Shown here piece after piece: positions 35,031 to 40,184 of a stretch of 64,000 bases of DNA. Numbering within the stretch: position 1 is the first letter of the stretch; each line of letters opens with the position of its first letter. The translations under genes and the position numbers were made by a program. Location: the NCBI RefSeq assembly GCF_965641715.1, contig NZ_OZ282453.1, one strand, 5' to 3'. The notes under the pieces are model-generated. The model had not been told where the DNA came from, ran no database searches, and worked only from the letters and a program-made list of their open reading frames with translations. The DNA is from Escherichia coli (lineage in GTDB: Bacteria; Pseudomonadota; Gammaproteobacteria; Enterobacterales; Enterobacteriaceae).

Positions 35031-35109
35031 GCCACTGCTTTTCTTTGATGTCCCCATTTTGTGGAGCCCATCAACCCCGCCATTTCGGTTCAAGGTTGGT
35101 GGGTTTTTT
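35031..35109 (+). ncRNA. rybB: RybB small RNA (sigma-E-dependent, Hfq-binding), 79 nt
   Basis: gccactgcttttctttgatgtccccattttgtggagcccatcaaccccgccatttcggttcaaggttggtgggtttttt matches the known RybB sequence, including the terminator hairpin and U-tract; sigma-E-like -35 GAACTT and -10 TCTTA upstream; lies 76 bp after ybjL as in K-12. Confidence 0.9.
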
Positions 35110-35286
35110 GTTATCTAAATCCCCAAAATCTCCATTCTCTCCCCTGTCCAAAGCCTTATCTGACTGTCCTCTCTTCCAGAAAATCATTCTTTTTCGTACA
35201 AAGAACAAATAGTTATTGAGAAGCTTATTTAAAAACCTGAACAAAATCGGTAATATTCCTGGCTTTGCAATACACAGACTTTTTAT

Positions 35287-35838
35287 ATGGATATTAACGA
35301 GCTAAAAGAGTGCCTTCATCTGGAAGTCATTGGTAAAAGTAGGAAATTCACATGGCGTAAAGTCATTGTAAGGGCGATGAAACATCGGCGCGTTCGTTAC
35401 TTATTCTGGTGGCGTATCGCTAAATACGGCCATGAGAAAGGTGGTTACTGGCGGAAAATTGCTGGCAAAATTGAGCGAAAAATCCTTGATAGTTATGACG
35501 TTAAAATCCCATTAGTCGTTGATATAGGCAAAGGGTTGGATATTTCATACTTAACGGGAGTTGTTATCGGTCATAACGTAAAAATTGGTGAGAATTGTTC
35601 CATCAAACCCGGCGTAACCATCGGCCTACGTGGCCATTTTGACGAAATGGATATACAGATTGGCAACAATGTCACCATTGGTTGCAACGCCTCCATTCTG
35701 GGCGGCAAAGTCTATATTGGAGATAACGTCACGATAGGTGCACATGCATTGGTTTTGCATGATATCCCAGAAAACTCCATTTTTATCAATAAAATAGAAT
35801 ACGAGATTATCCCGAAAAAAGTTATAGCCGAAATGTGA
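35287..35838 (+). CDS. hexapeptide-repeat acetyltransferase, serine-acetyltransferase-like (CysE/WcaB family), 183 aa; not part of the K-12 backbone
   Basis: Tandem hexapeptide repeats (VVIGHNVKIGENCSIKPGVTIG ... IQIGNNVTIGCNASILGGKVYIGDNVTIGAHALV) and an SAT-like N-terminal region; no obvious SD; sits in lower-GC DNA between rybB and rcdA. Confidence 0.7.
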   Translation: MDINELKECLHLEVIGKSRKFTWRKVIVRAMKHRRVRYLFWWRIAKYGHEKGGYWRKIAGKIERKILDSYDVKIPLVVDIGKGLDISYLTGVVIGHNVKIGENCSIKPGVTIGLRGHFDEMDIQIGNNVTIGCNASILGGKVYIGDNVTIGAHALVLHDIPENSIFINKIEYEIIPKKVIAEM

Positions 35839-35897
35839 TCGCCAGTGAGATGATTAGCGCTATCGAGGGAGGTGTTGCGTCTTATCGACCTCTGTAG

Positions 35898-36434
35898 CTA
35901 CCCAGCAACCCTCTCAACCATCCTCAAAATCTCCTCGCGCGATAGCGGCTTACGGTCGGTGACAAAATGCAGCGTCATCCCCTCAATAAACGCATCAAGC
36001 GCGCGGGCGGTTCCGGGTTCAAACCATTGTTCGAGCGTTTGCTGACTGCGCTGCATCCAGTTTTGCATTACCGTTTTTAATAGCGGTTTTCGGCTAGCCA
36101 GCGCGTAGAGCTGGTACATCAGCTCCATGTTATCCGGCGTTGCAACCTGTGAGCTGTAGATCATATCGGTGATAGCCTGGCATGCGCCTTGAGCATCACT
36201 AACATCGCTAAAAAATGCCTGATATTGCCGGGACATGATCTCAGTAAAACTGCTGAACGCCTCCAGCAACAACTCATCAATTCCTGAAAAATAGTAGGTC
36301 ATCGATCCCAACGGTACCCCGGCAAGGGTAGCAATTTTGCGGTGCGTAACAGCATGTATTCCGTAAAGTTTCACCGCCTCCAGCGTGGCCTGGATAATTT
36401 TTTCTCGCCGTTGCGGATCGTTAGCGCGACGCAT
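35898..36434 (-). CDS. rcdA: TetR-family regulator RcdA (YbjK), 178 aa
   Basis: ORF track 35898..36464 (TTG) trimmed to ATG 36434 ([21 protein letters not shown]...). Confidence 0.9.
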
Positions 36435-36454
36435 GTCATTTCCTCTGTCTGCAA

Positions 36455-36474
36455 TTGTGTACAAATGTACACAA
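36455..36474. promoter_or_regulatory. perfect inverted repeat TTGTGTACA-AA-TGTACACAA in the rcdA/ybjJ divergent promoter region; probable RcdA (TetR-type) operator
   Basis: 9-bp arms are exact reverse complements; 21-40 bp upstream of the rcdA ATG and 44-63 bp upstream of ybjJ. Confidence 0.45.
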
Positions 36475-36517
36475 CCTTGCTAATGTTGTCTTCCTTCTTC
36501 TTATTTTGACGTGATCT

Positions 36518-37726
36518 ATGACCGTAAATTCTTCACGTAATGCATTGAAACGCCGAACCTGGGCGCTGTTTATGTTCTTCTTTTTGCCGGGCCTGTTAAT
36601 GGCGTCCTGGGCAACCCGTACGCCTGCTATCCGCGATATCCTCTCTGTCTCGATCGCTGAAATGGGCGGTGTTCTCTTTGGTCTGTCGATCGGTTCGATG
36701 AGCGGTATTCTCTGCTCGGCGTGGTTAGTGAAACGCTTTGGGACACGTAATGTCATCCTGGTCACCATGTCCTGCGCATTGGTCGGGATGATGATATTAA
36801 GTCTGGCACTCTGGCTGACATCGCCCCTGCTCTTTGCCGTTGGTCTCGGCGTCTTTGGGGCAAGTTTTGGTTCTGCGGAAGTGGCGATAAACGTTGAAGG
36901 TGCCGCCGTTGAGCGAGAAATGAATAAAACGGTTTTGCCGATGATGCACGGTTTTTATAGCCTGGGCACGCTGGCAGGCGCTGGTGTCGGGATGGCACTG
37001 ACGGCCTTTGGCGTTCCGGCAACGGTGCACATTTTATTGGCGGCGCTGGTAGGCATCGCGCCTATATATATCGCCATTCAGGCAATCCCTGACGGTACGG
37101 GCAAAAATGCTGCCGATGGCACCCAGCATGGCGAAAAAGGCGTACCTTTTTATCGCGATATCCAGTTGCTGCTGATTGGTGTTGTGGTGCTGGCGATGGC
37201 CTTTGCCGAAGGTTCTGCCAACGACTGGTTACCCTTATTAATGGTTGACGGTCACGGTTTTAGCCCCACTTCCGGCTCGCTGATTTATGCCGGTTTTACC
37301 CTGGGGATGACCGTTGGACGCTTCACTGGCGGTTGGTTCATCGACCGTTACAGTCGCGTTGCCGTGGTTCGGGCCAGTGCGCTAATGGGGGCGTTGGGTA
37401 TTGGGCTGATTATTTTTGTCGATAGCGCCTGGGTCGCTGGGGTGTCTGTTGTACTCTGGGGACTGGGTGCCTCGCTGGGCTTCCCGCTGACCATTTCTGC
37501 CGCCAGCGATACCGGCCCCGATGCACCAACCCGCGTCAGTGTGGTAGCAACGACCGGTTATCTGGCTTTCCTCGTCGGGCCGCCGCTGCTGGGCTATCTC
37601 GGCGAACATTATGGATTACGTAGTGCAATGCTGGTTGTACTGGCGCTGGTTATTCTCGCGGCTATTGTCGCGAAAGCCGTCGCCAAACCCGATACCAAAA
37701 CGCAGACGGCGATGGAGAATAGTTGA
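36518..37726 (+). CDS. ybjJ: MFS transporter YbjJ, 402 aa
   Basis: ORF track; matches E. coli YbjJ. Confidence 0.9.
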
Positions 37727-38541
37727 TGAGCATTAAATTAATTGCGGTAGACATGGATGGTACTTTCTTAAGCGATCAAAAAACCTATAACCGTGAGCGG
37801 TTTATGGCTCAGTATCAGCAAATGAAAGCACAAGGCATTCGCTTTGTGGTCGCCAGCGGGAATCAATATTATCAGTTGATCTCTTTCTTCCCTGAAATTG
37901 CTAATGAAATTGCCTTTGTGGCTGAAAACGGCGGCTGGGTAGTGAGTGAAGGCAAAGATGTTTTTAATGGCGAGCTGTCGAAGGATGCGTTTACTACTGT
38001 CGTGGAACATTTGCTGACGCGCCCGGAAGTGGAAATTATTGCCTGCGGAAAAAATAGCGCCTATACGCTCAAAAAATATGACGATGCCATGAAAACGGTG
38101 GCGGAAATGTATTATCACCGTCTGGAATACGTCGATAACTTTGACAACTTAGAAGATATCTTCTTTAAGTTTGGCCTGAATCTTTCCGATGAACTGATTC
38201 CACAAGTACAAAAAACATTACATGAGGCCATCGGCGATATTATGGTGCCGGTCCACACCGGCAACGGCAGCATCGATCTGATTATCCCCGGCGTACATAA
38301 AGCCAATGGCCTTCGCCAACTGCAGAAATTATGGGGAATAGACGACAGCGAAGTGGCGGTCTTTGGCGATGGCGGTAACGATATTGAGATGCTGCGTCAG
38401 GCAGGCTTTAGTTTTGCAATGGAAAATGCCGGCAACGCGGTCGTCGCAGCGGCAAAATACCGGGCAGGCTCCAATAACCGTGAAGGCGTACTGGATGTGA
38501 TCGATAAAGTTCTTAAACACGAAGCGCCATTTGACCAATAA
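37726..38541 (+). CDS. ybjI: HAD-superfamily (Cof-type) phosphatase YbjI, 271 aa
   Basis: ORF track 37723..38541 (TTG) trimmed to ATG 37726, which overlaps the ybjJ stop by 1 nt; N-terminal DMDGT HAD motif. Confidence 0.9.
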   Translation: MSIKLIAVDMDGTFLSDQKTYNRERFMAQYQQMKAQGIRFVVASGNQYYQLISFFPEIANEIAFVAENGGWVVSEGKDVFNGELSKDAFTTVVEHLLTRPEVEIIACGKNSAYTLKKYDDAMKTVAEMYYHRLEYVDNFDNLEDIFFKFGLNLSDELIPQVQKTLHEAIGDIMVPVHTGNGSIDLIIPGVHKANGLRQLQKLWGIDDSEVAVFGDGGNDIEMLRQAGFSFAMENAGNAVVAAAKYRAGSNNREGVLDVIDKVLKHEAPFDQ

Positions 38542-38951: not shown

Positions 38952-40184
38952 TTACCCTTCGTGAGAATTTCCCATCTGTTTATCTTTTAAAAAGATAACC
39001 ATCAGCGACAGCCACAAAATTCCGTTGACAAGGTTGAAGAGATTAAACAGTCCGTTGCCCCCGTTCAGCCAGGCATGTTTGCTGATTTCAATACCGACGG
39101 TAAAGATCAGCATTTGCAGCATTCCCATCGCCGCAGAAACCGTACCTTTACTCATATCGCTGGCAAACAGGGTTAATCGCACCAGTCCCGCATTCGCCAG
39201 ACCAATACCGAAAGCATAAATACTTAACCCGGCAGTCATCCATAAATACGCGTGCGATGAGATAACCGTTGCCGCAGCAGCGACCAACAGACCAATCATA
39301 ATCGGCCAGCCGCCCATAATAATCAGCGAACGTACGGTGCGGCGCGAGGTCAGACGCGCTAACAGCAAGTTACCCGCAATTAACGCCCCGAAAATAGGCA
39401 CTTGCAGCAAACCATATTCATAGCTGCTCAACTGCTCGCCGGTAATGATGATAATCGGCGACTGGGCGATCCACGCCAGCAACGGCAGGCTAACGAATCC
39501 CAGCGCCAGCGCCCCCGCCACAAAGCGACCGTTCTTCAGCACCAGCTTATAGTCACGACCGAGTTCTTTCAGCGACAGTTTCTCGCCTATACGCGTGGCG
39601 GTTTCAGGCATGGCTCGTTGCAGACCGAAAAAGGAGATCGCTGCCAATGCGGCAAACAAGACAAACATCCCTTCCCAGGGCAGCACATGGATCCACGCCG
39701 CGCCCACCAGTGGACCAAGTAGCGGAGCAATCAGCGCCACGTTCGCCATCAGCGCGGTGATCTTGATACAAACCGCCTCTTCGAAGGATTCCTGAATTGC
39801 GGCGTATCCCACAGCGCCAATGAAACAGAGGCTTATGCCCTGCAAGAAGCGCAACAGGGTGAATTGTTCAATGCTTTGCGCCAGTAATATTGCCAGACAG
39901 GTGACAATAAACCACACCACACCCGCCAGCATAACCGGACGGCGACCAATACGATCCGACAACGGCCCCAGGAGCCATTGTAAAAACATCCCGCCCGCCA
40001 GATACGCGGTCATCGAAGTAGGAACCCAATCAATGCCCGCCTGATATTGTTCCACCACGGCCAACATACCGGGTTGAATCATATCGTTGCCGATATAGGT
40101 TGAAAATTCGTAAAGCACCAGACAGAGAGGGAAAAGTAACGCCTGACGTCCAAGCCTGGCACCGGAAGCTAATTTATTTTGCAT
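38952..40184 (-). CDS. mdfA: MFS multidrug efflux pump MdfA (Cmr), 410 aa
   Basis: ORF track; [40 protein letters not shown]...; matches E. coli MdfA. Confidence 0.95.

Follow-up and report, generated by a model that had tools for sequence, protein, structure and literature searches.

The 20-bp inverted repeat at 36455–36474, which lies between the divergent genes rcdA and ybjJ in the 64,000-nucleotide stretch of Escherichia coli DNA that was analysed (the window), is the operator to which the TetR-family regulator RcdA binds with high affinity, situated amid overlapping divergent promoters; we give this reading a probability of about 0.93. It is an RcdA operator that was already known, and the identification, while correct, predicts nothing new. 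What is added here is a core sequence that is invariant across genera, a map of the overlapping promoters with a transcription start inside the operator, and a doubt about the positive autoregulation of rcdA.

Genes, palindrome and published RcdA binding

The genes and sites that surround the repeat are as follows.

35898–36434, minus strand: rcdA (ybjK), TetR-family regulator of 178 amino acids (open reading frame, RefSeq annotation, Pfam, PDB)
36440–36445, minus strand: putative ribosome-binding site of rcdA, GAGGAA (TTCCTC on the plus strand), in a pyrimidine-rich block that is partly conserved
36455–36474: RcdA operator, in which two RcdA boxes (TTGTnnACA) of opposite orientation form the perfect 9-2-9 inverted repeat TTGTGTACA-AA-TGTACACAA
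36518–37726, plus strand: ybjJ, MFS transporter of 402 amino acids, first gene of the ybjJ-ybjI operon (open reading frame, annotation, Pfam MFS_1 at 1.2e-33)
37726–38541, plus strand: ybjI, HAD phosphatase (annotation, Pfam Hydrolase_3)

RcdA carries the Pfam domains TetR_N (31.6 bits, cutoff 24) and TetR_C_31 (38.7 bits, cutoff 27.4), and matches the PDB chains 5x5i, 7acl and 7aco with E values of about 1e-115, at equal length and near-identity. None of the entries from this PDB search has a name that points to a complex with DNA. The gene names rcdA and ybjJ had been given in an earlier note made from the sequence, and they are right according to the RefSeq annotation and the RcdA matches in the PDB. 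The start of ybjI overlaps the stop of ybjJ, which indicates that the two are co-transcribed as ybjJI, the name used for the operon in PMC3535384.

The divergent spacer between rcdA and ybjJ is 83 bp long on the E. coli chromosome, and within it 20 bp separate the palindrome from the ATG of rcdA (36434, minus strand) and 43 bp separate it from that of ybjJ (36518, plus strand). K-12 has the same genes, the same spacer length and an identical 20-mer. Its spacer differs from that of the window at two single nucleotides only, 36447 (G for C) and 36495 (T for C), both of which are outside the operator and the conserved promoter block described below.

The window also differs from K-12 on the other side of rcdA. 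An insertion of about 0.8 kb (35120–35895) lies between the small RNA gene rybB and the 3′ end of rcdA, and contains an open reading frame (35287–35838, plus strand) for a hexapeptide-repeat acetyltransferase of 183 amino acids, annotated as ‘serine acetyltransferase’. In K-12, rybB follows 20 bp after rcdA, without the acetyltransferase gene. The insert is found in 70 of 5426 complete E. coli genomes, always at an identity of at least 99%, and O145 strains are among them. The RybB gene itself (35034–35112, plus strand) is full length (Rfam RF00110, 104 bits).

Read directly from the window, the plus strand at 36455–36474 is TTGTGTACAAATGTACACAA. The arms, 36455–36463 and 36466–36474, have 9 nt each, are 100% complementary and are separated by 2 nt, exactly the 9-2-9 palindrome that the earlier note had described. 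The operator pattern is unique in the window, with one occurrence in 64 kb when up to 3 mismatches are allowed and none in 100 dinucleotide shuffles. A perfect inverted repeat of this size would nevertheless be no surprise in a sequence of 64 kb. With arms of 9 nt or more and 0–4 nt between them, the window has four distinct perfect repeats (five overlapping hits), and 30 dinucleotide shuffles gave 1.8 on average and 6 at most. Nor is there any enrichment of the single unit TTGTNNACA, which occurs 6 times in the window where 8.6 are expected. The case for function is therefore made by position, conservation and published experiments, and not by the palindrome alone. The three perfect repeats of the window besides this palindrome are CAGCCCACATGGATGTGGGCTG at 708–729, TTATCTTTTAAAAAGATAA at 38980–38998, near the 3′ end of mdfA, and AGGTTGGCATTGCCAACCT at 63892–63910.

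The published experiments are those of Shimada et al. 2012 (PMC3535384), who used purified His-tagged RcdA, at that time named YbjK, for genomic SELEX. The ybjJ-rcdA spacer was among the top targets, with 15 SELEX clones and a SELEX-chip peak, and a probe of this spacer showed the highest gel-shift activity. A DNase I footprint on the spacer covers the palindrome, which was described as TTGTGTACAttTGTACACAA, and the RcdA box was defined as TTGTnnACA. In an rcdA mutant, ybjJI mRNA (by Northern blot) and a ybjJ-lacZ fusion both went up, making RcdA a repressor of ybjJI, while an rcdA-lacZ fusion went down, which the authors read as positive autoregulation. On a 496-bp probe more than 10 complexes were seen, with strong cooperativity (PMC3535384), and this counts against a firm figure for the binding stoichiometry.

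Read on the reverse strand, the window 20-mer is exactly the published TTGTGTACAttTGTACACAA, and the K-12 spacer carries the same 20-mer, so that the comparison with published RcdA sites which the earlier note had called for gives an identical sequence on the opposite strand. Its assignment of the palindrome as the RcdA operator between rcdA and ybjJ is borne out by the SELEX, gel shift, footprint and ybjJI derepression in PMC3535384. It had also put the operator forward as a prediction still to be tested, which does not hold, as the binding, the footprint and the reporter fusions in the rcdA mutant had all been published in 2012 (PMC3535384). The site, the protein that binds it and the effect on ybjJI have been in print since that year, leaving little here for discovery.

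PMC3535384 is not consistent on where the palindrome is: the text puts it in the tfaX-appY clones, while the legend of Figure 1 puts it in ybjJ-rcdA. No match to the palindrome within 3 mismatches occurs in K-12 between 581000 and 585000, the region of tfaX-appY, and a 50-bp query around the site matches at a single location in each of 5422 of the 5426 complete E. coli genomes. A second copy upstream of appY is accordingly rejected, and the palindrome belongs to ybjJ-rcdA only. It is concluded that the text is muddled on this point and that the legend is right.

Conservation across the Enterobacteriaceae

Orthologous loci were collected from one genome per species, giving 80 loci with RcdA relatives of 67–98% identity. 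They span Escherichia, Citrobacter, Salmonella (arizonae and diarizonae), Klebsiella, Raoultella, Enterobacter, Kluyvera, Kosakonia, Leclercia, Lelliottia and others, and together with the window they make up 81 aligned sequences. A divergent homologue of ybjJ is present in 79 of the 80; in the remaining one the contig ends first.

The universal element is a double TGTACA with an AA spacer. The 14-bp core TGTACAAATGTACA (TGTACA-AA-TGTACA, 36458–36471), which consists of two self-complementary TGTACA hexamers, is invariant in the window and in all of the 80 loci. The presence of the palindrome in orthologous promoters had been set as a test of the prediction, and it is the core that is found throughout. 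Next to it, 36472 is C in 80 of the 81 sequences, while the outer bases of the arms are less constant: 34 sequences have G and 47 have A at 36457, 67 have T at 36455, and 54 have A at 36474. A perfect 9-2-9 repeat is thus limited to E. coli and some other lineages. In the two most divergent E. coli spacers examined, the sole change in the 20-mer is at the outermost base, 36474, from A to G.

The same pattern bears on the suggestion that the site belongs to another regulator such as CRP, whose sites resemble TGTGA-N6-TCACA. The 20-mer does contain TGTGT and ACACA, but these pentamers are 8 bp apart and not 6, and position 36457, the second G of TGTG, is A in the majority of the aligned sequences while the TGTACA hexamers do not change. 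This is the wrong pattern for CRP, and we regard such a site as highly improbable.

The helix-turn-helix of RcdA is nearly invariant in the same species, with 51% invariant positions in residues 13–59 compared to 30% elsewhere. The site can be called non-random on the strength of the 83-bp divergent spacer in which it sits, the invariant core in 80 loci and the published RcdA binding.

In the loci checked, the operator lies 42–52 bp from the start of ybjJ, including those in which rcdA is farther away. Its distance to rcdA is 19–23 bp in 69 loci and 53–120 bp in 11. That the ybjJ distance is kept while the rcdA distance varies points to control of ybjJ as the constrained function.

Spacers of 118–185 bp are found in the loci numbered L022, L023, L025, L031, L039, L049, L058, L059, L062, L064 and L078. 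The long-spacer loci, which come from Salmonella arizonae and diarizonae, the Klebsiella oxytoca group, Raoultella and a few others, have 35–100 extra bp between the operator and rcdA and an unchanged distance from the operator to ybjJ. In the two Salmonella loci the GACA of the putative rcdA −35 element (see below) has also been lost.

Proposed overlapping promoters and the control of rcdA

Candidate promoters were ranked by a simple match count out of 12 over both strands of the spacer, and were compared with the alignment and with a transcription start mapped by Cappable-seq. This gives the following features.

36487–36492, minus strand: putative −35 element of rcdA, AAGACA, of which GACA (36487–36490) is 98–100% conserved
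36464–36469, minus strand: putative −10 element of rcdA, TACATT, invariant in 81 sequences and including the 2-bp spacer of the operator
36456, minus strand: transcription start of rcdA (A), from Cappable-seq, which in window numbering is base 2 of the palindrome
36458–36463, plus strand: putative −35 element of ybjJ, TGTACA, in the left arm of the operator and invariant
36478–36486, plus strand: putative extended −10 element of ybjJ, TGcTAATGT, in which TG, TA and the last T do not vary among the 81 sequences

The putative rcdA promoter AAGACA-17-TACATT scores 8/12, the joint best on the minus strand. The best candidate on the plus strand is TGTACA-17-TGcTAATGT, with 7/12 plus the extended −10. 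A general promoter scan of the spacer returned none, both promoters being below its threshold of 9/12.

The rcdA start is at 886624 (plus strand) of U00096.2, and is the only plus-strand start among those listed for 884045–888769. An offset of 777 takes it to 887401 of U00096.3, which is position 1902 of locus L082 and position 36456 of the window. We rest this offset in part on the coordinates of appY (582904 in version 2, 583681 in version 3); the start itself comes from one published dataset and has a modest score of 2.858. It falls 7 nt downstream of TACATT and inside the palindrome, so that the operator spans −18 to +2 of the rcdA promoter. No start for ybjJ or rybB turned up among the Cappable-seq starts listed. 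The ybjJ promoter was placed from its sequence and conservation; if it is as proposed, the operator would be at about −38 to −19.

A second block at 36476–36490, CTTGCTAnTGTTGTC, adjoins the palindrome and is equally conserved. The block and the core together read as two fully overlapping divergent promoters, which occupy the same 35 bp or so on opposite strands. All of the conserved bases outside the dyad are within either the ybjJ −10 element (TG, TA, T) or the rcdA −35 element (GACA), and the invariance of the non-palindromic AA spacer can be explained by its place in TACATT.

Other assignments within the spacer were considered. The block at 36476–36490 might be taken for a second operator, in the manner of eilO2 or tetO2, but no dyad in it survives in the orthologues, and it has no likeness to an RcdA box. 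The pair ACAAC/GTTGT that can be found in E. coli uses the variable positions 36473–36475, and no second conserved dyad was seen in the rcdA-ybjJ spacer in the ortholog alignment. The block reads better as the extended −10 of ybjJ together with the −35 of rcdA. An alternative rcdA promoter, TTAGCA-18-CACAAT, has an equal score and was rejected, since the start at 36456 would be inside its −10 and CACAAT is not conserved. TTGCTA was likewise rejected as a downstream −35 for ybjJ, there being no usable −10 at 16–18 bp in E. coli or in the orthologues.

The position of the promoters raises the question of whether the core is conserved mainly for its promoter hexamers, in which case the dyad would be a by-product of mirror-image promoters and RcdA would be secondary. 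The invariant bases do coincide with the putative ybjJ −35 (TGTACA) and rcdA −10 (TACATT), the AA spacer is invariant as well, and the outer bases of the arms, which should matter for a 9-bp half-site, are the ones that drift. On the other hand, promoter hexamers that depart so much from the consensus seldom stay unchanged between genera, and the helix-turn-helix of RcdA is conserved together with the site. Purified RcdA moreover selects and footprints this sequence in vitro, where there is no RNA polymerase (PMC3535384). We consequently regard this reading as improbable. The two readings are compatible, and the invariance of the core could be due in part to the promoter hexamers; the dyad is nonetheless best understood as the RcdA operator.

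The transcript boundaries are relevant to a further suggestion, namely that the repeat acts in RNA as a terminator or a 5′ stem-loop rather than in DNA as an operator. A 9-bp stem with a 2-nt loop can indeed be drawn, but a loop of 2 nt is sterically poor and no run of T follows. The rcdA transcript from 36456 holds only the last two bases of the palindrome, and the putative start of ybjJ is downstream of it. An intrinsic terminator was also rejected, as the terminator scan made no call at the site, which is upstream of or at the start of both transcripts. A hairpin is thus extremely unlikely, and it was discarded along with the CRP site, the two failing on spacing, conservation pattern and transcript boundaries.

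As an operator, the repeat would probably be bound by a homodimer of RcdA, each 9-bp RcdA box taking one helix-turn-helix. The centres of the half-sites are 11 bp apart, or about one helical turn, which would place the contacts on the same face of the DNA. RcdA bound there would cover the putative −35 of ybjJ and the upstream half of its promoter spacer, and would thereby keep off RNA polymerase carrying sigma-70. The binding of RcdA to this site and its repression of ybjJI are both published (PMC3535384). On the other strand, RcdA would be expected to cover the −10, the discriminator and the start site of rcdA, and so should limit its own transcription.

An operator at −18 to +2 thus predicts self-repression, and this conflicts with the fall of rcdA-lacZ in the rcdA mutant (PMC3535384). 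The earlier note had called the arrangement a classic one for TetR-type repressors, which control both themselves and an adjacent transporter; repression of the transporter has stood up, whereas self-repression has not, given the reported behaviour of the fusion. The promoter geometry nevertheless fits self-repression better than positive autoregulation, and with the operator in this place no mechanism but repression or an indirect effect is plausible for rcdA.

One way in which the two could be reconciled is through competition between the promoters. If RcdA is missing, polymerase may be shut out of the weaker rcdA promoter by the ybjJ promoter, which has an extended −10. RcdA at −18 to +2 could then favour its own promoter on balance, as it would hold the competitor down. 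That the positive autoregulation of rcdA is indirect in this way is a tentative suggestion, and a doubtful one; the alternative is that the reporter result is an artefact and that rcdA is simply self-repressed. If the effect is either indirect or an artefact, the curated sign and mechanism of rcdA self-control need revision. No independent data on the sign of autoregulation were found: the paper on a tunable transcription factor library has the localisation of RcdA only, and the metformin paper holds no RcdA binding-site or promoter data.

Inducers and comparison with known systems

Small cationic or amine compounds are candidate inducers, which could release RcdA and so allow expression of the YbjJ exporter; the published evidence for this is partial. 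Expression of ybjJ goes up about 3-fold with the imidazolium ionic liquid [C2mim]Cl, and loss-of-function mutations in rcdA give tolerance to ionic liquids. Weak ligands of RcdA are TMAO (Kd 7 mM) and Tris, the latter seen in crystals, and RcdA bound to either is curated as inactive. The effects of biguanides on vitamin B12 transporter genes require rcdA. Derepression of ybjJ by loss of rcdA is of use for ionic-liquid tolerance in biofuel strains, and the operator, which is compact and has a deeply conserved core and partly mapped promoters, could serve as a regulatory part in the way that eilO does.

A natural comparison is with TetR and tetO of Tn10, in which a dimeric repressor binds palindromic operators within the overlapping divergent promoters of tetR and tetA, and the target is an MFS transporter. 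The RcdA system is alike in having a TetR-family regulator that probably binds as a dimer, a palindrome in probable overlapping promoters and a divergent MFS target. It differs in having one operator of 20 bp where Tn10 has two tetO of 15 bp, and the sequences are unrelated. RcdA, unlike the Tn10 TetR, also binds about 40 other genomic sites. The self-regulation of tetR is negative, whereas that of RcdA has been reported as positive (PMC3535384).

EilR of Enterobacter lignolyticus (Jungle Express, PMC6127294) is a TetR-family repressor with a divergent MFS pump and a connection to ionic-liquid tolerance, as is RcdA. Its operator eilO likewise has inverted half-sites 2 bp apart. It is embedded in both promoters (PMC6127294), as the RcdA operator would be if the ybjJ promoter is as proposed. 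The differences are that the arms of eilO are 11 bp long, that its sequence, AAAGTTGGACACGTGTCCAACTTT, is unrelated, and that each spacer contains two copies of it (PMC6127294); its 11-2-11 consensus, AAAGTTGGACAC/GTGTCCAACTTT, is not matched here in sequence, arm length or copy number, the RcdA site being single. EilR structures are also absent from the PDB relatives of RcdA at E values up to 1e-5, and membership of the EilR/eilO type was rejected on all of these grounds.

Compared with TetR-type divergent systems in general, the TetR domains, the conserved divergent transporter and an operator lying over the rcdA promoter elements are all present. The derepression of both genes that would be typical is seen for one of the two, with ybjJI going up and rcdA-lacZ down in the mutant (PMC3535384). 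In relation to the RcdA box itself, every feature tested is there, including the inverted TTGTnnACA units and the divergent ybjJ/rcdA spacer, and the RcdA box of K-12 (PMC3535384) is the same site, with an operator that shows no difference at all.
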